In this document: positions 3,151-26,221 of the stretch, in pieces
How positions within the stretch are numbered: the first letter of the stretch is position 1
Layout of the letters: each line of letters begins with the position of its first letter
IMG/VR virus record: IMGVR_UViG_2522572164_000008
Length of the DNA: 27,592 bases
Strand: one strand, 5' to 3'
Origin: a virus
Lineage: Duplodnaviria > Heunggongvirae > Uroviricota > Caudoviricetes
Made by a program: the position numbers and the translations under genes
The notes under the pieces: model-generated
What the model was told of the DNA's origin: nothing
What the model saw: the letters and a program-made list of their open reading frames with translations, nothing else
Databases searched by the model: none

Positions 3151-3339
3151 ATGAATATTAATTTTGATTCTGCAACTTATAACGCGTTGTTAAATCGTGC
3201 AAAGGCAGAAGGGAAATCAATTCCAAAACTTGTTAATGAATTACTAATTACAGTCCTTACAAAGGAGGAACTAAATGATCAAAAATATCAAAACAATTGC
3301 CGAAGCGAAAGCCAAATGTCTAAATCAGAAAGATGGTAA
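3151..3339 (+). CDS. Putative ribbon-helix-helix (CopG/Arc-like) DNA-binding protein
   Basis: N-terminal strand-helix-turn-helix pattern (INFDSATYNALLNRAKAEGKSIPKLVNELL); GGAGAAGGAG upstream. Family call by pattern only. Confidence 0.45.
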   Translation: MNINFDSATYNALLNRAKAEGKSIPKLVNELLITVLTKEELNDQKYQNNCRSESQMSKSERW

Positions 3340-3943
3340 ACAAAAATATGTAGTCGTTGAGCAGTGGTTGAAGATGTTTAAAAAGTGGTTCTCACCGTCA
3401 GGTAATGAATACACCGCTACACTGCCAGCCGTTGAAATCTATAGCTATATAGCTGGATTCAATGAACAAGGGCAAGAATGTTACGCCACTCAAAAAACAT
3501 TATCTAATATTGGAATGGTTAGTGATCGCCAGGTTCGCAATATTATAAATATGTTTGTTGATATGGGAGTTCTTTCTGTAGAGGCTCGGGACGGGCAAAC
3601 ATCACTCTATAAAGCATTACCATTCACAGATGCACATATTACTCCCCCTGGAGAGTCATCACTACCTGATCCTTCTGAGAAAGAAGACGAATCTAATGAA
3701 ATATTGAATGTTTCCGAAATCATCGTTGAAGAAGAAACACAAGAGCCAGAGTTCCCTGAGCGGCCCGAAATTTTTACTTGGCTTCTTTCCCTTGATAAGA
3801 AGAAACCACCGCACGAAGAAACAGAAGATTTTGTAAAACGAGCATTAGATTCAAAGAATATCTATCTTTGTGAAAATGATTTTGACTCTTTGATAATTGA
3901 TCTCAAAAGTGAGAGCACAATATATGATTCACTACCCTTCTAA
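3275..3943 (+). CDS. Winged-helix/HTH protein with acidic C-terminal tail (222 aa), regulator or initiator-like
   Basis: AAGGAGG 6 nt upstream of ATG; HTH-like segment YATQKTLSNIGMVSDRQVRNIINMFVDMGVLSVE; C-terminal half rich in E/D/P. Overlaps the preceding ORF by 65 nt. Confidence 0.6.
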   Translation: MIKNIKTIAEAKAKCLNQKDGKQKYVVVEQWLKMFKKWFSPSGNEYTATLPAVEIYSYIAGFNEQGQECYATQKTLSNIGMVSDRQVRNIINMFVDMGVLSVEARDGQTSLYKALPFTDAHITPPGESSLPDPSEKEDESNEILNVSEIIVEEETQEPEFPERPEIFTWLLSLDKKKPPHEETEDFVKRALDSKNIYLCENDFDSLIIDLKSESTIYDSLPF

Positions 3944-13719: not shown

Positions 13720-14934
13720 GTGAAACTCAATGCCCGTCAAATAGACACTGCCAAGCCAAAAGAGAAGGCTTACAAGCTGGCTGATGGTGGTGGTCTGTAT
13801 CTCTTGGTAAAACCTAGTGGAGGAAAATATTGGCGCTTCAAGTATCGTGTAGCTGGTAAAGAGAAGCTGTTAGCACTAGGTGTGTATCCTGAAGTTACTT
13901 TGGCTGATGCTCGTGCAAAACGTGAAGAAGCTAAAAGGGGTATCGCTGGGGGTATCGATCCGATGGAAGCGAAACGAGAGGAAAAGATTGCCCGGGAAAC
14001 GCAGTTAAACAACACCTTCAAAGATATTGCCCTTGAGTGGCACAGCAGCAAATTAAAAAAATGGTCTGCTGGTTATGCTTCAGACATCCTCGAAGCCTTC
14101 AACAAAGATGTGTTCCCTTACATTGGCAAAAAACCAATCGCCGAAATCAAACCACTTGAACTGCTGAATGTGCTGCGGCGCATCGAGGGGCGCGGTGCTA
14201 CCGAAAAAGCCAAAAAAGTGAGGCAGCGATGCGGGGAAGTTTTCCGCTATGCAATTGTCACTGGACGTGCTGAGTATAACCCTGCACCGGATCTCACCAG
14301 CGCGATGCAAGGTCATGAATCTAATCATTATCCTTTCCTCACAGCCAAAGAATTACCTGATTTTTTCAAGGCATTGTCCAGTTACTCAGGAAGTGCATTG
14401 GTTGTTATGGCGGCTCGTCTACTGATTATCACCGGTTTGCGGACTGGCGAACTGCGCGGTGCATTATGGGATGAAATCGATCTCAACAAGGCTATCTGGG
14501 AGATACCTGCTTCACGGATGAAAATGCGTCGCCCTCATGTGGTGCCTTTGTCTAAGCAGGCTCTTTCGCTTATTGGGCAGATTAAAGAATTAACTGGCAA
14601 TTATCCGCTTATGTTTCCCGGCCGTAATGATCCAAGGAAAACAATGAGCGAGGCTAGCATAAACCAAGTATTTAAACGCATCGGCTATAACGGAAAGGTT
14701 ACTGGTCATGGATTCCGGCACACCATGAGCACCATTTTGCATGAGCAGGGCTATAACACCGCGTGGATAGAGACGCAGCTCGCACACGTCGATAAAAACT
14801 CAATTCGTGGCACATACAACCATGCGCAATATCTGGATGGACGGCGGGAAATGCTTCAGTGGTACGCCGATTATATGGATTCGCTCGAGCATGGCGGAAA
14901 TGTGGTGCATGGTGAGTTCGGAAAATGCGGGTGA
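13720..14934 (+). CDS. Tyrosine integrase, P4/CP4-57-like family (404 aa)
   Basis: GTG start with GGAGG 9 nt upstream; N-terminus ARQIDTAKPKEKAYKLADGGGLYLLVKPSGGKYWRFKYR typical of P4-type integrases; catalytic R...HGFRHT...Y region near the C-terminus. Confidence 0.9.
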   Translation: MKLNARQIDTAKPKEKAYKLADGGGLYLLVKPSGGKYWRFKYRVAGKEKLLALGVYPEVTLADARAKREEAKRGIAGGIDPMEAKREEKIARETQLNNTFKDIALEWHSSKLKKWSAGYASDILEAFNKDVFPYIGKKPIAEIKPLELLNVLRRIEGRGATEKAKKVRQRCGEVFRYAIVTGRAEYNPAPDLTSAMQGHESNHYPFLTAKELPDFFKALSSYSGSALVVMAARLLIITGLRTGELRGALWDEIDLNKAIWEIPASRMKMRRPHVVPLSKQALSLIGQIKELTGNYPLMFPGRNDPRKTMSEASINQVFKRIGYNGKVTGHGFRHTMSTILHEQGYNTAWIETQLAHVDKNSIRGTYNHAQYLDGRREMLQWYADYMDSLEHGGNVVHGEFGKCG

Positions 14935-15062
14935 CTGGTTGAGTATACAGTAGTAGACTTTGAGCGACGAAAGAAAAGGCTGTGTCTAGGGGCGCTCCCG
15001 AAAATCCGTACATCTCGACGGACTGGTACAGCCACTACAGTAGAGGACGCTGAGGTGTGCGT

Positions 15063-16054: not shown

Positions 16055-16252
16055 ATGTCAAATACGCTTATTCGTTTAACAGAAGTTCAGCGTAGAACTG
16101 GATATAGCAAGGCATGGATTTATCGCCTTATGGGGCAAGGTAAATTTCCTGCATCAGTTAAAATTGGCTCGCGAGCTATTGCTTTCGTTGAGAGTGAAAT
16201 TGACGAGTGGATTAATCAGCGTATTGCTGAATCACGCGGAACAGCTACCTGA
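16055..16252 (+). CDS. alpA: AlpA-family phage transcriptional regulator/excisionase-like HTH protein (65 aa)
   Basis: Sequence LIRLTEVQRRTGYSKAWIYRLMGQGKFPASVKIGSRAIAFVESEIDEWI matches the AlpA family pattern; RBS GAGGTAAATAT-ATG. Confidence 0.85.
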   Translation: MSNTLIRLTEVQRRTGYSKAWIYRLMGQGKFPASVKIGSRAIAFVESEIDEWINQRIAESRGTAT

Positions 16253-16330: not shown

Positions 16331-17131
16331 ATGAAACTGCGAAAAACGCCCGTACAGGGGCAGGGCTTCGTTCGGCCTGAAAACCAGAATCTGCAAAATT
16401 TCGGCGAAATTATCCCGGTTATTTCCGGCGTTATTGGCGGGCGTGAAACCAATATTGTTAGCGGCAGAGCGTTGCATAAGGCGTTAGGTGTAGGTCGCGT
16501 TTTCCGTTCGTGGATCAAGGGGCGCATTGAAGAATACGGCTTCACGGAAGGCGTGGATTATGAGGTTGTTGAATATTTGAGCCGACCCGATCCGGTGAGC
16601 GCAAAATCTCGCCAGCAAACAGCTCTTGAGTACATCATTACCGTGAACATGGCGAAAGAACTGGCGATGGTCGAACGCACCGAACAGGGGCGCGCCGTTC
16701 GTCAGTACTTCATCAAATGCGAGGAAGAGCTACACAAGGTTGCGCCTGTACGTTCCGCAGCGTTACGCCGGGAACTGAAAGCCCGTATCACAGTTGCCAG
16801 CTACTTTAAGCCAATGTGTGCCGCGCTGGAGGACTACCGGGCTGAACTGGGTAAAAACACTCTACAGCACCACTACACCACGGAAGCCAATATGCTGGCG
16901 CGTATCGTGCTGGGTGGCATGACTGCAAAACAGTGGGCGCAGGTGAACGGCATCACAGGCGAACCACGCGACCACATGAGCACGTTGCAGCTTGAGCACC
17001 TTTCTTACCTTGAGCAGAGCAATATCACGCTGATTGAGTTAGGCCAGGACTACCACCAGCGGAAGGCTGAATTAATTCGTCTTTCGCAGCGTTGGTTAGC
17101 CCGTCGCATGGAGGAAAACAGCCATGTGTAA
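16331..17131 (+). CDS. Phage antirepressor-like protein (266 aa)
   Basis: RBS AGGAG; N-terminal region resembles prophage antirepressor proteins as recalled. Family assignment tentative. Confidence 0.6.
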   Translation: MKLRKTPVQGQGFVRPENQNLQNFGEIIPVISGVIGGRETNIVSGRALHKALGVGRVFRSWIKGRIEEYGFTEGVDYEVVEYLSRPDPVSAKSRQQTALEYIITVNMAKELAMVERTEQGRAVRQYFIKCEEELHKVAPVRSAALRRELKARITVASYFKPMCAALEDYRAELGKNTLQHHYTTEANMLARIVLGGMTAKQWAQVNGITGEPRDHMSTLQLEHLSYLEQSNITLIELGQDYHQRKAELIRLSQRWLARRMEENSHV

Positions 17132-17590
17132 CGCTCTGACCGTTACAAAAAGAGAAAGCGCCCCGTTGCCGGAGCGCCTTTGTGAACGAATAGCCTACTG
17201 CGCCATATTGCTTACTGTCTACGAGGCAGATTATAGCGTTGTGGTCGCACAGAGTGAAGGCGCTGATCACCGTTACTACAGCACGCCAGAAATGCAGAAT
17301 ATTTTGCTGCAAAATGCCGTTGGCCACGCTGTCCGGAAAGCAAAAAATTTTGCTGGTGGCGCGACTGATGCGATTTTGTCAGGTCGCCAGGTGCTGATCA
17401 ATCTGATGTCTGATTTCGTTCTGGATAAAACAAAGGCGACCGCAGAGAGCCGCCAGTGGAAAAGCTACATACTTGAACGCATCACCAACAATGCCACATT
17501 TGCGGCTGGTGGGCAATGTGTCAGCTTTGCACCAATGACTCTAGGTTTAACTGAGGGTCATTATGGTGAATATGCTGGCTTGCTGGTGGG
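17124..17590 (+). other. Coding-like 5' part of a 1.57-kb stop-free frame; status unresolved, possibly a decayed or fused gene
   Basis: ATG at 17124 overlaps the upstream stop and has GGAGGA 9 nt upstream, but the frame has no stop until 18692 and runs antisense through a plausible minus-strand gene and a promoter region. The end coordinate is arbitrary. Confidence 0.3.
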
Positions 17591-17848
17591 CTATTCCTGC
17601 TCTTTAACATCGCCATGCCGCGATGTTTTCCAGGTATGCGACCCCATTTTTGTGCGCCTGTACTCTTTAAGGAATTTCTCAAGGATAAACGCACAGGGCG
17701 CGAATCTGTCTGACTCATGCTCGTACGCTATCTTTCTGCGCTGTCTTTTCCGTGCCGGTGATGGTGTATTGGTTGATTCTTTGTTGGTCATGGCGCTGCC
17801 CTGTAAAACGATGCACCGTAGTTCCTCACACCACGGCGCTGGTGATGG

Positions 17849-18154
17849 TTACTCCTGTTCTTTGGCCTTGCGCCGCTGGAGTTCTTCACGCGCGACGGTG
17901 ACGAGTTGCCCGATCTCCTCGGCTGCTTTGACACCGATTTTTTCCACCTGCGCCAGTGCATCGAGCGAAGAAACCAGGGGATTTTCTCCGCTTCCTTCTG
18001 CCTGGCGGCGGGCGATTTCACCGCGAACGGCTGTAATCACGAAAGCGGCTATTGTTTCCCCTTCCGTTTTCGAATTTTCCATTTCCTCGATTACATCATG
18101 GGGGAAGCGGATATTTTTCATTTGCGATCTGCTGTTGATGTTTCCTGTTGCCAT
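17849..18154 (-). CDS. Putative ribbon-helix-helix-type regulator with C-terminal coiled coil (101 aa)
   Basis: MKNIRFPHDVIEEMEN strand-helix pattern; divergent from the downstream plus-strand operon across a palindrome-rich region. No clear SD. Confidence 0.6.
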   Translation of the reverse strand: MATGNINSRSQMKNIRFPHDVIEEMENSKTEGETIAAFVITAVRGEIARRQAEGSGENPLVSSLDALAQVEKIGVKAAEEIGQLVTVAREELQRRKAKEQE

Positions 18155-18176
18155 CAGAATGTCCGGTTATTTTGAG

Positions 18177-18279
18177 GTGTGTACACATTACACCAAAAGG
18201 TGTGTTGATAAAACACTTGACACTGTAGCACACTTAAATCTAATCTGTATATACACTAATGATTGTGGTGTATATACAG
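18177..18279. promoter_or_regulatory. Divergent promoter/operator region with three palindromes
   Basis: Perfect 12-bp inverted repeat CTGTATATACAC (18245-18256) / GTGTATATACAG (18268-18279) with 11-bp spacer; TGTGTACACA (18177-18186); ACACCAAAAGGTGT (18190-18203); TTGACA at 18217-18222 with a TAATCT -10 candidate 18 bp downstream. Confidence 0.55.
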
Positions 18280-18346
18280 CAACGCCCCGCAGTGGTGGCA
18301 CACATGCAGGGCGTCTAACCAAACCGTTAAACGAGGTAACGATTAT

Positions 18347-18692
18347 GGCTGGAACACAGCATACCCAAACTCACCCTAAATTTATATACACCTTCCTGGC
18401 GGTGCACCGTGATTGCATAGCTGACGGTAAAAACACTGTACACGTAGCCGCTGATACGCTGGTTGATGCCTGCGAGATGCTCAATGACATGGGCTATATC
18501 TCGGCAACATGGAAAGGGCGCGAAGAAAACACGCTGTTTATTCAGAAATGCGAGAACAATTTTATCTGGCGTTTTATCGCCCTGAGCACAGCACAACCGC
18601 GCGTAATTCACATCGAGGCCACCAGCGAACAGGAAGCGCGTCAGCAATCTCCTGATGGCTGCGTGATGGTATTCGCTGCCCGTATTCGCTAG
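18347..18692 (+). CDS. Hypothetical protein (115 aa)
   Basis: ATG at 18347 with GAGGTAACGATT upstream; this is the 3' part of the long stop-free frame and is probably the real gene. Confidence 0.5.
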
Positions 18693-18702
18693 GAGGTGCA
18701 CC

Positions 18703-19068
18703 ATGCATAACCTGTCAATTTATGACCTTAACAGCATTCAGTTTCGTGAGAAATTCACCGAGCAGCTACTGGTTAACGTGGAGAATGGACGCGTGGTAAG
18801 TAATTATCACCTGCCGGATGGTGCAATTGCCGGAAGCGTTGAAGCATTGCTGGAACTGGCAGAACGTGCGCGACTTATTAAGCCGTTAACGAACCATCAC
18901 GATGATGATCTGCATTTTACCGGACGCATGGTGAGTCACTACGAAAACGGCGTCGAGGTATCCCGCGAACGGCTGCGTGATGATTGCTGTTTCGGAACAC
19001 TGCCGGAATTTAGCGAACTGCTGACCCGTTGCGATTACCGGATCATTCAGGGGGGAAGTCATGGGTAA
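18703..19068 (+). CDS. Hypothetical protein (121 aa)
   Basis: Strong RBS TAGGAGGTGCACC-ATG. Confidence 0.6.
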   Translation: MHNLSIYDLNSIQFREKFTEQLLVNVENGRVVSNYHLPDGAIAGSVEALLELAERARLIKPLTNHHDDDLHFTGRMVSHYENGVEVSRERLRDDCCFGTLPEFSELLTRCDYRIIQGGSHG

Positions 19069-19261
19069 TCAGCCAGCAACAATGACAATTACCCTGAATG
19101 TGCCAGATGATTTCACCGGGCGCGTACTGGTTTACCTGGATAAAGGGAAAGTGAAATCACAATGCCGACTGCGAAATAATGAAATTGTAAGTACGGTAGA
19201 AGGCTTTTCTGAACTATGTATTCGTGCAGGAATAAAACCGGAACTGCTGACAGGAAAATAA
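19061..19261 (+). CDS. Hypothetical small protein (66 aa)
   Basis: RBS GGGGGGAAGTC-ATG; start overlaps the upstream gene end. Confidence 0.5.
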   Translation: MGNQPATMTITLNVPDDFTGRVLVYLDKGKVKSQCRLRNNEIVSTVEGFSELCIRAGIKPELLTGK

Positions 19262-19265
19262 AACC

Positions 19266-19556
19266 ATGAAAAAGAAAAATTCTGGCTTTACTGCCAGCGG
19301 CCTCTCTCGGTCTGCAATTCGCTCTGGCGATATTTACCGCGACACCAGACGTGGGGGACGAGTGGTTATTCGTCACGTTACGCCAGGCAATATCACCTAC
19401 CGCCGTGAGGCTTACGAATATGACTGCGTAATGCCGCGCCGTCAGTTTGAGCGTGATTTTATTCTGGTGGAAAACAAACAATTGGCGGTGGCAAGACGTG
19501 CAGCCTCGAATATTAAAAAAATCCGGGCAATGTTGGTTGCGGGAGGTAAGAAGTGA
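19266..19556 (+). CDS. Hypothetical small basic protein (96 aa), possibly of a conserved island-associated family
   Basis: Motif GDIYRDTRRGGRVVIRHV...YEYDCVMPRRQFERDF resembles small proteins recalled from P4-integrase islands; stop overlaps the start of the next gene. Confidence 0.5.
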   Translation: MKKKNSGFTASGLSRSAIRSGDIYRDTRRGGRVVIRHVTPGNITYRREAYEYDCVMPRRQFERDFILVENKQLAVARRAASNIKKIRAMLVAGGKK

Positions 19557-21685
19557 AAAACGCACCGAATTTAAAATATCAGCCAAAGGATAAATTCACC
19601 GAGGTAATCATTTTTGCCGGGACGGATGCTTACGCCCATGCTCAACACTGGATTGAAAGCGAAGGACGAAAACACGGCGATAACGTGCCACCTGTTTACC
19701 TGGGGCCAACGCAACTGGCAGATCTGGCTAATATCCGCATTATCGACGATGAGCGCCGCTTTGCGCGTGTTTATATCGCGGGGGAGATAGAGCCAATCCA
19801 GATCAATGCTATCGCTGAAAAGCTGGCGCTGGCTGGCGTACAGGATGCGAAATTATACAAAGGCATCACCGACCGGGAGCCGGAGAACTGGCGCGACTAC
19901 CTGCAACGGATCCGCGAACAGGCAGAGCGCGGGGAAACCATTCCTGAAGGAATCGGAATAGCTGGTGGATCACCCGGTAAAACAGACCCCATGAAACCGC
20001 ATATTACCGAAAAAGACGGGGCGCTCTGGTATATCGAGCCAATCCCCAACACCAGGGCAGAGGAGATGAATTATAAAGAAACCTGGCTGAGTGACCGGAT
20101 GCGCACGGCAGGTATTGGTAACGACGGAAGGGAAGCGTATCTGATCATTGAAATGATCCCGGAAGGGACACAAAAAATTATTTACGAAGCGATGCCGCGC
20201 AATGAAATCGGTATGCCCGCAGGATGGGCGCGATTACGTGGGCGGGGAGTTGCAATCACTACCAGTGCCCATTTACTGAACAAACTGGCGGAATACCTGC
20301 AACGTCATGGAGATCGCACGGTGTGGGAGGTCACATCAACAGCAGGTTGGCATTGTGGAGCCTATGTTATGCCTGATGGCGAGGTGATTGGTGTGCCTGA
20401 CCGTCCCGTAGCATTCTGCGGCGGATCTGCCGCCATCAAAGGCTATATTGTCAGGGGCACGGTGCATGAATGGCGAAATAATGTTGCTTCTCTGATGCGT
20501 GGCAATCACTCAATGATGCTTGGGGTGCTGGTCGGGCTGGCAGCCCCGCTAAATTCCCTTGTGGGTGGTAGTTGTTTTGGTATTCATCTTTTCGCGCAGT
20601 CGTCAGCGGGGAAAACCACGACTGTGGAGGCCGCCACCAGCCTTTATGGCGACCCTGAAATGCTTAAACTCTCGTGGGATGCCACCCGGCACGGGCTGAC
20701 AGTGGAAGCAGCTGCACGTAATGACGGTTTTATCCCTATTGATGAAATTGGTCAGGGAGGAAGGGTTAATGACATTGCGCAATCCGCCTACAGCCTGTTT
20801 AACGGTGTGGGCAGGATTCAGGGGCGCAAGGACGGCGGTAATCGTGCGGTAATGCGCTGGAAAATAGCGGCACTAAGCACCGGAGAAGAAGATTTTGAAA
20901 CCTTCCTGTTAAAAGGGGGAATTGCCCCAAAGGCAGGGCAACTGGTGCGACTGCTAAGCATTCCCTTTACCGATACAACGGTGTTTAACGGTTATGACGA
21001 TGGTGATCAACATGCCAGGGCCATAAAGCGACTTTCATCAAATTATTGTGGCGCTGCGGGACGTGAGTGGGTGCGCTGGTTATCCGCTCACAAGGAGCTG
21101 GCTATCAACACCACTTCAGATAAAGAAAATGCCTGGCTGGGAAATCTGCCTGAAAATGCCTCGTCACAGGTAAGGCGAGTGGCATCGCGATTCGCCATGC
21201 TGGATGCAGCCGGAGAGCTTGCCACCGCAATTACTGGCTGGACAGCTGAAGAATGCCGGGAAGCAACGCAACGGGCTTTTGATGACTGGCTACAGGATTT
21301 CGGGCTGGAAAACCGGGAAAAATATCAGGTCATCAGTCGCGCCCGTGACTTTATTCAGCGCCATGCCCTGAGTCGTTTTCAGCCTTATACCTACGGGAAA
21401 AGCAATGGGGATATGGATAACCACTATGCATCCCGTATAAGCAATCTTGCAGGCTATCTTGTCAGCGGTAAGCGTGAGGATGGAAAACCCGAATATCACA
21501 TTATCCCGTCAGTGTTTGATAGCGAAATTTTATGCGGTATATCCAGGAACTTTGGGTGTCAGGCGCTGGAAGAAGCCGGAATGCTGGTTTGTGCAGAACC
21601 TGGTCGCTGGACATCGAAAACAGTGAAGATTAACGGAACACAGCAGCGATTTATCGTGCTGATTGATCAGGCAGAAGACGAATAG
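19553..21685 (+). CDS. Replication protein, primase/helicase-like P-loop NTPase (710 aa)
   Basis: GTG start with GGAGGT upstream; Walker A GxxxxGKT (FAQSSAGKTTTVE); large N-terminal domain; followed directly by an iteron array. Confidence 0.75.
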   Translation: MKNAPNLKYQPKDKFTEVIIFAGTDAYAHAQHWIESEGRKHGDNVPPVYLGPTQLADLANIRIIDDERRFARVYIAGEIEPIQINAIAEKLALAGVQDAKLYKGITDREPENWRDYLQRIREQAERGETIPEGIGIAGGSPGKTDPMKPHITEKDGALWYIEPIPNTRAEEMNYKETWLSDRMRTAGIGNDGREAYLIIEMIPEGTQKIIYEAMPRNEIGMPAGWARLRGRGVAITTSAHLLNKLAEYLQRHGDRTVWEVTSTAGWHCGAYVMPDGEVIGVPDRPVAFCGGSAAIKGYIVRGTVHEWRNNVASLMRGNHSMMLGVLVGLAAPLNSLVGGSCFGIHLFAQSSAGKTTTVEAATSLYGDPEMLKLSWDATRHGLTVEAAARNDGFIPIDEIGQGGRVNDIAQSAYSLFNGVGRIQGRKDGGNRAVMRWKIAALSTGEEDFETFLLKGGIAPKAGQLVRLLSIPFTDTTVFNGYDDGDQHARAIKRLSSNYCGAAGREWVRWLSAHKELAINTTSDKENAWLGNLPENASSQVRRVASRFAMLDAAGELATAITGWTAEECREATQRAFDDWLQDFGLENREKYQVISRARDFIQRHALSRFQPYTYGKSNGDMDNHYASRISNLAGYLVSGKREDGKPEYHIIPSVFDSEILCGISRNFGCQALEEAGMLVCAEPGRWTSKTVKINGTQQRFIVLIDQAEDE

Positions 21686-25397: not shown

Positions 25398-25465
25398 CCA
25401 TACCCACAACGCATTCCCTTTCCGCATGAAATTATTTTTTATCGTATATGCATGAGGTGAGCTAC

Positions 25466-25993
25466 ATGTTGATGAGTAAAGCCGAATACGCCAAATACAA
25501 AGGCGTAAGCCGCCAGACAGTTTACGACTGGCTCGAGAAAGGCGAAGTGGTCATGTCCGGTAAAAAAATTGATGTGGAAGCGACAGAGCAGCGGAACAGC
25601 CCACCAGCACAGGGGAAAGACACCATTTCTGAAATGTGGCCAGAAAGAACGCTGGAAATGACATGGGGCGAGTTCTGGAAAGCAGTTAAGGCCAGAGACG
25701 GTAAAATTCCTGCGCCAGTAACGGACGAGGGCATACAGCAGCGTGTGCTGTATGCAGCCGGGGAATTAGGCTGGGAAGTGCACTTTCTTGATGATGGTGC
25801 TATCTGCCTTGAGGATGATGAAGGGCAGCATTACTTTGAAAAATACAATTTGCGAGGTAATGCCAGGCTGGCAATTCGTATGCTGCGTTGCGAACTCTGC
25901 TATGTTGCAGGTGATTATCCCGATGAACCGGAATCATGGAGTGAAGCCGGGTTAAACGCCCTGGCTGAGTGGGAAAAATCAGACCATCAATGA
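25466..25993 (+). CDS. HTH DNA-binding protein (about 175 aa), terminase-small-subunit-like or regulator-like
   Basis: N-terminal HTH SKAEYAKYKGVSRQTVYDWLEKGEV; GAGGTGA upstream; its stop is followed immediately by an array of direct repeats. Functional call speculative. Confidence 0.55.
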   Translation: MLMSKAEYAKYKGVSRQTVYDWLEKGEVVMSGKKIDVEATEQRNSPPAQGKDTISEMWPERTLEMTWGEFWKAVKARDGKIPAPVTDEGIQQRVLYAAGELGWEVHFLDDGAICLEDDEGQHYFEKYNLRGNARLAIRMLRCELCYVAGDYPDEPESWSEAGLNALAEWEKSDHQ

Positions 25994-25997
25994 CATC

Positions 25998-26221
25998 AAA
26001 AAGTGTCAAGTTGAGCAGCTTGCCGGGTTGACACTTTACACTCTGAACACGAAAAAGTGTCAACCTCGCTGTAAGCCCCGCCGTTACTGGCCTTGCGCCA
26101 GATTTACCACGTCAAAAAGCCGAAAAAATCGCGAAAAGTGTCAAGTTGCCATGCTTAGAAATGCCAGGGGAGGTTAAGTTTTGTTAAGGTTTTTCCCGAA
26201 AAAGTGTCAAGTGTGTCAACC
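25998..26221. repeat. Array of six copies of GAAAAAGTGTCAA(G/C)-type repeats (one inverted)
   Basis: Copies at 25998-26010, 26028-26039 (inverted), 26053-26066, 26133-26145, 26198-26211 and 26211-26221. Confidence 0.6.

Follow-up and report, generated by a model that had tools for sequence, protein, structure and literature searches.

A Putative Ribbon-Helix-Helix Repressor with Allele-Matched Palindromes and a Putative Antisense RNA in the Control Region of a Gram-Negative Phage-Inducible Chromosomal Island

Results

Layout of the Divergent Control Region

The region studied here lies in a 27,592-nt stretch of viral DNA (Caudoviricetes; IMG/VR record IMGVR_UViG_2522572164_000008), which was analyzed at its full length and is called the window below. 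It is a 190-bp segment that separates a leftward gene for a ribbon-helix-helix (RHH)-like protein of the YlcI/YnfO family from a rightward operon of replication genes. Sequence identity (100% to Escherichia coli O104:H4 chromosomes and 99.9% to strain 55989) identifies the window as the thrW island of E. coli 55989/O104:H4. It belongs to the Gram-negative phage-inducible chromosomal islands (PICIs), EcCICFT073 type. As satellites of phages, PICIs are widespread and mobilize genes for virulence and defence. A first-pass annotation of the sequence had reported a TTGACA box, a perfect 12-bp inverted repeat, and two further palindromes between divergent genes, and had read the region as the repressor-controlled switch of the island. 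Direct reading of the sequence and a repeat finder recover all of these elements in place. From the ATG of the leftward RHH-like gene (18154) to that of the rightward operon (18345) there are exactly 190 bp of non-coding DNA, and the rightward genes comprise an Icd-like open reading frame (ORF), small ORFs, a DUF4222 gene, and a DUF927 primase/helicase gene. That annotation contained neither the antisense RNA element immediately downstream of the operators nor the stop-free frame that encloses the "intergenic" region. The features of the region are as follows.

17849-18154, minus strand: YlcI/YnfO-family gene, 101 amino acids (aa), putative repressor; ATG at 18154
18178-18187: O_L, 10-bp palindrome TGTGTACACA, overlapping the -10/+1 of the leftward promoter; putative autoregulatory site
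18185-18190, minus strand: candidate leftward -10, TAATGT, predicted from positional conservation
18190-18207: ACACC-AAAA-GGTGT (18190-18203) plus half-site GGTGTGTTG, between the two promoters
18217-18222, plus strand: -35 of the rightward promoter P_R, TTGACA, from positional conservation
18223-18232: degenerate half-site CTGTAGCACA in the P_R spacer, where relatives have a full repeat copy
18241-18246, plus strand: P_R -10, TAATCT, after an 18-bp spacer, from positional conservation; predicted start ~18253
18245-18256: O_R1, CTGTATATACAC, core palindrome at 18246-18255, overlapping the P_R -10 and +1; putative operator
18268-18279: O_R2, GTGTATATACAG, core at 18269-18278, at ~+15 to +26 of P_R; putative operator
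18281-18350, minus strand: putative cis-antisense RNA of ~70-80 nt, predicted start ~18350 (AGCCAU...)
18358-18363, minus strand: candidate antisense-RNA -10, TATGCT, inside ORF1 codons 5-7
18345-18692, plus strand: ORF1, 115 aa, first gene of the rightward operon; Shine-Dalgarno (SD) sequence GAGG at 18333-18336
17124-18692, plus strand: stop-free frame of 522 codons, antisense to a 66-aa ORF and to the RHH gene, then crossing the operators and leader to enter ORF1 in frame

The arms of the perfect inverted repeat, CTGTATATACAC and GTGTATATACAG, are separated by 11 nt. Each arm is itself a 10-bp palindrome, TGTATATACA, and the starts of the two copies are 23 bp apart. They belong to an array of sites (TGTGTACACA, two half-sites, and two copies of TGTATATACA) starting at 18178, 18201, 18224, 18246, and 18269, with spacings of 23, 23, 22, and 23 bp. 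Both of the further palindromes are present, but ACACC-AAAA-GGTGT is better taken for the leftward -10 region with an adjoining half-site than for an operator of its own; the second half of the 18190-18207 element repeats AGGTGTGT, whose first copy, at 18175, is 23 bp away.

Such an arrangement is rare by chance. Dinucleotide shuffling of the 190-bp region produced a perfect inverted repeat of at least 12 bp in 2 of 5000 sequences, and at least three 10-bp palindromes in 26 of 5000. The whole 27.6-kb window holds only two 12-bp inverted repeats with a loop of at most 30 nt. Copies of TGTATATACA with at most one mismatch number 5 in the window against 0.84 expected, a count reached by 0 of 100 shuffles, and three of the five fall within 18246-18390. 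A third near-copy of the operator core, TTTATATACA (18381-18390), lies inside ORF1 codons 13-15 and pairs as an inverted repeat with 18175-18189 and 18267-18276; since it is kept in loci L003 and L004 despite their different operators, it may be mere coding sequence.

For comparison, ~25 related modules from E. coli, Salmonella, Enterobacter, and metagenomes, including that of EcCICFT073, were read, and scaffold positions were tabulated in 19 of them. The sample was drawn from complete E. coli genomes, 1222 of 5426 of which contain sequence similar to the control region, and from contigs encoding homologues. Measured from the RHH ATG, a minus-strand -10-like hexamer for leftward transcription stands at +30/31, and TTGACn stands at +62/63 in 17 of the 19 modules, followed 17-18 bp beyond by a TAnnnT hexamer, the rightward -10. 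The TTGACA box, taken for a -35 in the first-pass annotation, is conserved in position as one. The leftward -10 reads TATACT, TATAGT, or TATATT in most relatives; TAATGT in the window is weaker, agreeing with the consensus at 3 of 6 positions and having no good -35. The repeats also keep fixed places: beside the leftward -10, between the promoters, directly after the -35, and directly after the rightward -10, over the start site. Their sequences are entirely different between islands while these positions are unchanged, a layout that would be expected of operators occluding two back-to-back divergent promoters.

Repeat Type Follows the β Strand of the RHH Protein

Variation among the aligned YlcI/YnfO proteins is concentrated in residues 2-17, with R16 and P18 invariant. 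Positions 12-15 and 17 form discrete classes, each with one repeat motif, so that ~12-13 repeat types pair one-to-one with β-strand variants. The pairs are given below as strand, repeat, and locus.

MKNIRF: TGTATATACA / TGTGTACACA; the window
KKNIRF: TGTGCGCACA; L011
MTTIRV: TGTAT(A/C)TCAC; L003, L004
QISIRI: TGTGATTC; L005, L006a
KLQARA: TGGAATCCA; L006b
SLTARI: GTGTAAGAC; L007, L009, L010, L014, Enterobacter soli L002
LTTVRV: GTGTGTTTCA; L008
QLNARF: GGTATTCAC; L012, L013
ALKARV: GTGGGCCACACC; EcCICFT073
MTTVRI: GGTGTATTTCA; L016a
TVAARV: GTGTTYAACAC; L016b, L017
FQFRLD: TGTAATG..CATTACA; plasmid L018

An identical strand always occurs with an identical motif, and this holds between genera too, as L007 of E. 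coli and L002 of Enterobacter soli show. The pairing was used as a prediction for three KN[IV]RF alleles fetched later from Salmonella and metagenomes. All have TGT..ACA palindromes (TGTGTACACA twice, GTGTGTACACAC, and TGTATACA), so that the same strand is again accompanied by the same outer TGT/ACA triplets. The O_L palindrome of the window recurs in this way as the operator of other KNIRF-strand alleles (L022, L025).

The remaining parts of the modules are exchanged freely. An identical AlpA protein (WP_000072422.1) is found with three operator types, a given ORF1 N terminus with more than one operator type, and a given operator type with more than one ORF1; a type-E operator accompanies both RepA-helicase and primase replication genes, and the C-terminal half of the RHH protein is mosaic relative to its N terminus. 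The match of strand and repeat, set beside the independent assortment of AlpA, ORF1, and the replication protein, makes the leftward YlcI/YnfO protein the probable operator-binding repressor. That the palindromes are RHH operators, as had been proposed, is borne out at the level of sequence, where across the ~25 modules they shift in step with the β strand of this protein only.

Several islands carry tandem duplications of the module (RHH gene, operators, leader, and a truncated ORF1, "MAIKEHSLLF..."), in two or three copies with different RHH alleles in one island (L006, 2492-3740; L016, 1750-3330; L007 and L014, ~2480-2580).

A Predicted RHH Fold

The protein scores 64.2 bits against the NCBIfam YlcI/YnfO model NF041551 (cut-off 30), aa 9-50 aligning with the whole 42-position profile, and the annotation pipeline PGAP assigns this name in identical and related records. 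The family occurs in Escherichia, Salmonella, Citrobacter, Yersinia, Klebsiella, Enterobacter, Serratia, Erwinia, and Cronobacter. Modeling predicts an N-terminal Arc/Mnt-like RHH domain (aa ~9-55), in which the β strand M12-K-N-I-R-F17 is followed by P18 and then by two helices, with the order and length (~45 residues) of the RHH fold. From this fold the protein is a putative dimer that would bind DNA via a two-stranded antiparallel sheet. Apparent specificity residues on the N-terminal strand and operators made of short repeats or palindromes are likewise as expected of RHH proteins.

Relationships to known RHH families are distant. Aligned with hhalign to Arc, the protein gave P = 0.002 and a probability of only 13%, in a register that places KSQxxNIRxPHDV over Arc KMPQFNLRWPREV. 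The residues of the Arc strand to which it aligns make base contacts. An hhalign comparison with CopG aligned the wrong region. No curated RHH family matched above threshold, the best in Pfam being PSK_trans_fac (18.8 bits versus 28.3); the Pfam Arc and MetJ models did not match the protein, a PDB profile search found no RHH protein, and Foldseek gave no match.

Beyond the RHH domain, the AlphaFold2 model has a long and continuous C-terminal helix (aa 59-100). The C-terminal half of the protein (aa 46-86; 17949-18014; LVSSLDALAQVEKIGVKAAEEIGQLV) weakly resembles the helix-hairpin-helix of Hef (1x2i, E = 0.043), a reading left unsupported by the model because it has one long helix there. About half of the family is only 59-66 aa long and lacks the C-terminal part. 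The EcCICFT073 form is one of these (59 aa), and the short and long forms parallel the difference between Arc and Mnt. In EcCICFT073, the small genes bear late-added locus tags. Plasmid pKFu021_1 (L018, 2258-2700) encodes a more distant Arc-like RHH protein of 59 aa. Its palindromes are particular to this copy, the antisense-RNA leader is shared with the other modules (80 bits), and downstream there follow a hypothetical gene, a gene for a WYL regulator, and DUF1819/DUF1788 (BREX-like) genes; the plasmid copy implies that the module is reused outside PICIs.

A Conserved Putative Antisense RNA over the ORF1 Leader

From the right operator to ORF1, the sequence is far better conserved than its flanks, at 91-98% identity where neighboring sequence differs. 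Read on the minus strand, this segment would specify the putative antisense RNA. Its 5' stem-loop (18350-18317) exposes the anti-SD sequence CCUC (18336-18333) in the loop, and its 13-bp terminator hairpin (18315-18281) leads into a U-rich tail formed by the right operator arm, O_R2, on that strand. At the position of the candidate -10, relatives have TATGAT, some with an upstream TG. The candidate -10 stands 7 nt ahead of the start-codon complement and aligns with the -10 of SymR in E. coli K-12 (TAGAAT, 7 nt, then AGUCAU), an element that Kawano et al. inactivated by mutation (PMC1891008).

An alignment of 20 leaders retains both the 5' stem-loop and the 13-bp hairpin, with compensatory changes in 9 of 18 pairs. 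Pairing is possible in 98.1% of alignment cells for the minus-strand RNA, 61 of them G.U pairs, and in 81.4% for the plus strand, where each G.U pair turns into an A.C mismatch. In every sequence the minus strand also folds at lower energy, and it is to this strand that the conserved structure is assigned. When a covariance model was made from these leaders, it recovered copies outside its training set, among them those of EcCICFT073 (64 bits) and of the plasmid (80 bits).

The architecture is that of SymR: the promoter would lie within the opening codons of the target, one hairpin at the 5' end spans the SD region, and a second is of the terminator type. Membership in the SymR family (RF01809) was rejected: there is no match in the window at E ≤ 10, the scores of L003 and L009 (35.7 and 30.8 bits) fall short of the gathering score, 61, and in the reciprocal direction the PICI-RNA covariance model misses K-12 symR. 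At gathering scores, Rfam yields only the int-alpA RNA in the whole window, with no family at the antisense-RNA position, and a permissive scan of 17500-19000 (E ≤ 10) returned chance-level matches only. Among these was the RSF1010/R1162 antisense RNA (RF00043; 17.9 bits against a gathering score of 55, E = 4), which we regard as resemblance and not membership. The name "Icd-like" led us to look for C4/CI immunity RNAs (RF01695, RF03163, RF01394), of which there are none in the window at gathering score and none in 17500-19000 at E ≤ 10. L005 has the same RHH/operator/leader module and, farther downstream, a second Icd-like gene that contains a C4 antisense RNA (3222-3426; 69 bits) with a1/b1 targets and an isrK-like match. 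Three immunity layers would accordingly be stacked in some islands, the C4 layer being absent from the window.

A Stop-Free Frame through the Control Region

The plus-strand frame begins in the window at ATG 17124, which overlaps the stop codon of the ant gene. In the same register, the RHH antisense is free of stops in 17 of 17 modules, as is the 125-nt operator region in 16 of 17. The other two frames over that region have up to 7 stops (median 3), one frame of L018 having none. Shuffling puts the probability of a stop-free frame at P ~0.03-0.07 per locus, and in this register the wobble positions on one strand fall opposite those on the other. With a length of 760-1820 nt, the frame opens 0-53 nt from where the plus-strand gene before it (alpA or ant) ends. 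It ends in one of two ways, either in frame with ORF1, as in the window and in EcCICFT073 (428 codons), or with a stop at -22, -7, +10, -11, or +10 nt from the ORF1 ATG. Its translation matches no family. No strong plus-strand terminator was found between alpA and ORF1, while the terminator of the leftward operon (17180-17155) is good. PGAP sometimes annotates pieces of the frame as long or pseudo "Icd-like" coding sequences (CDSs) overlapping the RHH gene.

Surrounding Genes of the Island

The other features of the island, in order along the window, are as follows.

13720-14934: integrase gene, adjoining tRNA-Thr/proA
14979-15046, plus strand: int-alpA RNA (Rfam RF02996; 44.2 bits, gathering score 35.8), after the integrase gene and before the following ORF
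Between the int-alpA RNA and AlpA: hypothetical gene
16055-16252: AlpA (Pfam PF05930)
16331-17131: AntA/AntB antirepressor-family gene (ant), in the alpA operon, upstream of the control region
17155-17180, minus strand: terminator-like hairpin from a terminator scan, 11-bp stem and T-run
17591-17791, minus strand: small basic ORF of 66 aa (phrog_21027; PHROG match 8e-33, no other family)
18703-21685, plus strand: rest of the rightward operon, overlapping or abutting ORFs (Pfam, PHROG, NCBIfam)
Downstream of ORF1, plus strand: two small ORFs of phrog_340 (PHROG)
19266-19556, plus strand: DUF4222 gene
19553-21685, plus strand: DUF927 primase/helicase gene
After the DUF927 gene in the rightward order: ProQ/FinO and PerC genes

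The window has the gene content of a Gram-negative PICI: int, alpA, and a pri/rep module in fixed order, a specific att site, and no phage structural or lysis set. It is inserted next to proA/tRNA-Thr, and its location between proA and thrW agrees with that of EcCIMP1. Module order in EcCICFT073 is identical, including a YlcI/YnfO gene facing an Icd-like gene. Helper-phage induction and packaging have been demonstrated only for EcCICFT073 and EcCIMP1.

The leftward RHH transcript, which is convergent with the alpA-ant operon, probably ends at the hairpin at 17155-17180. The 66-aa ORF lies downstream of the RHH gene and is probably part of the same transcript; a homolog adjoins the RHH gene in EcCICFT073, and the ORF is absent from this place in L003, L005, L008, L009, L010, and L012. 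Within the unannotated 460 bp between ant and the 66-aa ORF, the minus strand has a promoter-like site, TTCACT-17-TATAAT (10/12, strong), and an extra terminator-like hairpin, at 17230-17258 and 17435-17454.

The C-terminal 43 aa of ORF1 form an Icd-like domain (NCBIfam NF033153, 79 bits). From its SD-proximal ATG (18345) ORF1 is 115 aa long, and its N-terminal 70 aa are common to L003/L004 only. The PGAP annotation of 55989 (NC_011748) gives an Icd-like CDS that is 18 nt longer (window-equivalent end 18710) and starts at an internal ATG, 18489.

A second repeat cluster lies at 26000-26065, directly after an ORF resembling HTH_17 (25448-25993). It has AAAGTGTCAA at 26000 and 26054 and an inverted copy, TTGACACTTT, at 26028, which form a 12-bp inverted repeat (GGTTGACACTTT / AAAGTGTCAACC). 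The cluster could serve as a further operator, a packaging site, or an origin.

Discussion

As far as sequence comparison can indicate, the control region is probably an immunity-like region of the PICI, in which RHH dimers on TGT-N4-ACA palindromes silence the replication genes. The dimers would insert their N-terminal β ribbon into the major groove of the palindromes, and O_R1 and O_R2 together would occupy P_R (TTGACA-18-TAATCT), the promoter predicted to drive the Icd-like ORF and the replication genes, from its -10 across the start site into early transcribed sequence. Because these sites lie over the P_R core, their occupancy would block RNA polymerase, and because O_L lies over the -10/+1 of the protein's own weak leftward promoter, its occupancy would provide autoregulation. 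The ~23-bp phasing and the long C-terminal helix suggest that bound dimers cooperate in the manner of the Mnt tetramer. A second, independent layer would be the SymR-like cis-antisense RNA, pairing with the ORF1 leader and its SD sequence. By analogy with P1 c4/icd/ant and P4 CI/kil-eta, a block to ORF1 translation would be expected to expose the downstream replication genes to Rho-dependent polarity.

Overexpression of AlpA alone brings about excision and runaway replication of EcCICFT073 (PMC6092414). Induction of the window element, by analogy with that island, probably also comes from outside the RHH/operator unit, via AlpA. Since AlpA alone induces EcCICFT073, the RHH/operator unit is at most a maintenance repressor and not the whole switch. 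The description of the region as the island's repressor-controlled switch therefore stands for its parts (RHH protein, operators, and divergent promoters) and is incomplete, AlpA being the known inducer in EcCICFT073.

Several points weigh against silencing by the RHH protein. The derepression of EcCICFT073 replication by AlpA implies that the RHH block can be bypassed and may not be the decisive control. A literature search for YlcI/YnfO, RHH proteins in PICIs, and Icd-like/AlpA found no functional study, and "operator" and "repressor" are predicted roles. Both -10 hexamers of the window, for P_R and for the leftward promoter, are weak, and a consensus sigma-70 scan of 17700-18800 called no promoter. 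P_R was missed because its -10, TAATCT, fits only 3 of 6 consensus positions; our call is based on a position conserved across related loci and not on consensus strength. Finally, the co-variation of strand and repeat could in part be physical linkage, the adjacent N-terminal codons and the repeats forming one recombination block. The recombination boundaries tolerated in nature nevertheless appear to keep exactly the strand and repeat pair together.

Of the other explanations, we consider it rather unlikely that the RHH protein binds the repeats without being the induction switch, as an autoregulated accessory or immunity factor that could, for example, hold the replication genes at a low basal level or exclude related PICIs of the same allele, with the on/off decision made by AlpA and the antisense RNA. 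The AlpA-only induction of EcCICFT073, which has the same module, would agree with such a role, as would the many discrete specificity alleles, which recall phage immunity groups, and the tandem duplicated modules with different alleles in L006 and L016. However, in every locus the sites lie over the P_R core promoter, the place for a primary repressor. A type II toxin-antitoxin pair of the 66-aa ORF and the RHH protein, the latter as antitoxin, is very unlikely; the palindromes would then be purely autoregulatory and their adjacency to the replication operon incidental. The 66-aa ORF matches no toxin family (Pfam, NCBIfam, PHROGs) and is missing from many loci that retain the RHH gene and operators, and the repeat copies lie on the -35/-10/+1 of the rightward promoter, not on the leftward promoter alone.

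Binding of the repeats by another factor, whether host LexA, AlpA, the ORF1/Icd-like product acting like Cro, or a replication initiator on origin iterons, is highly improbable. LexA is suggested by CTGTATAT, which resembles an SOS half-box, by CTGTATATACA, which resembles a LexA half-site, and by the real LexA box at the analogous position upstream of K-12 symE (PMC1891008), and PHROGs label Icd-like families "transcriptional repressor." But 18100-18400 has no LexA box of the form CTG-N10-CAG, LexA or any other host factor is disfavored because the repeats are entirely different between islands, and repeat type is independent of which AlpA, ORF1, or replication genes a module has. We give even less credence to a role of the 12-bp inverted repeat as RNA, whether as a hairpin opening the P_R transcript or within the antisense-RNA terminator. 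Its arms could form a 12-bp stem with an 11-nt loop, and the right arm is the tail of the antisense terminator, but the predicted P_R start (~18253) falls inside the left arm, and relatives have, at the same positions, direct repeats (EcCICFT073) or repeats separated by the -10 that are unable to form a hairpin.

Silencing by the RHH protein may be joined to the stop-free frame in a more speculative proposal, which we advance tentatively and hold somewhat less likely to be right than wrong: that YlcI/YnfO RHH proteins are the missing maintenance repressors of Gram-negative PICIs, and that the control region is built for bypass rather than derepression. AlpA-driven read-through transcripts would stay translated across the repressor gene and the operators and so avoid Rho polarity, would run head-on into RHH transcription, and would bring ribosomes to ORF1 with no need for its SD sequence. 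Translated read-through and SD-independent delivery of ribosomes would allow escape from both the protein repressor and the antisense RNA. This would fit the induction of EcCICFT073 by AlpA alone.

The proposed mechanism is of a well-known kind, and its nearest known system is the immI region of phage P22 (Mnt/Arc, sar), here in an uncharacterized protein family. P22 immI has the RHH repressors Mnt and Arc, the divergent promoters Pmnt and Pant, and the sar antisense RNA. Shared features are a small RHH repressor divergent from the repressed promoter, operators overlapping the core promoter (predicted here), an Arc-like N-x-R-x-P strand signature, a C-terminal helical extension that could join dimers as in Mnt, and a short cis-antisense RNA over the ribosome-binding site of the downstream gene. 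In contrast, the gene regulated in P22 is an antirepressor, whereas here it is an Icd-like ORF with replication genes, the ant homolog lying upstream in the alpA operon; P22 has one 17-21-bp operator where the window has 10-bp palindromes phased at 23 bp; and P22 is a phage and the window a satellite, with no sequence-level family link (Pfam Arc, MetJ).

The antisense layer is closest in design to SymE/SymR of E. coli K-12 (PMC1891008), where a repressor operator at the promoter is followed by a ~77-nt antisense RNA with its -10 in the first codons of the target. SymR also starts at the complement of the start codon and has a 5' hairpin, a UGrUUAG linker, and a terminator hairpin abutting the operator. 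At symE, however, the operator protein is LexA and the target an AbrB-fold toxin. In P1 immI (c4 RNA-icd-ant) and P4 immunity (CI RNA, kil/eta leader ORFs; PMC10111431), an antisense RNA likewise targets translation of the first, Icd-like ORF, and the window element is related to P4 in integrase, AlpA/Vis, and primase. Leader-ORF translation probably protects the downstream genes from termination, as in P1/P4. C4/CI RNAs, however, work in trans after processing from the sense transcript; the RNA of the window is a putative true cis-antisense transcript, and a protein repressor comes in addition. RSF1010/R1162 repA control combines a small autoregulated repressor (F) at the promoter with a 75-nt countertranscript over the leader and start of the first replication gene, and the R1162 leader has the same order of hairpin, CUAACCA, SD hairpin, and AUGGCU. 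In Gram-positive PICIs, including the Staphylococcus aureus pathogenicity islands (SaPIs), the repressor genes (Stl/Rpr) are also divergent from the satellite replication module and diverse in allele between islands (PMC6092414). Stl proteins are large helix-turn-helix repressors inactivated by helper-phage proteins, in contrast to the 59-101-aa RHH proteins here and to AlpA, the known inducer of Gram-negative PICIs.

In the founding paper on Gram-negative PICIs, no global repressor was known and the cycle was controlled by the activator AlpA only (PMC6092414); the RHH gene is not mentioned in the PICI papers searched, which were those of the openly searchable literature. As a candidate for that repressor, with mapped putative operators, the YlcI/YnfO protein makes the point directly testable, and it is present in the model island EcCICFT073. 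The at least 12 matched strand/operator alleles form a natural table of RHH specificity, of use for orthogonal repressors and for PICI-based "drones" without cross-talk. The putative antisense RNA is, from its conserved structure, an RNA family absent from Rfam. The stop-free frame, if it reflects real biology, would be an unusual way to override a repressed promoter.

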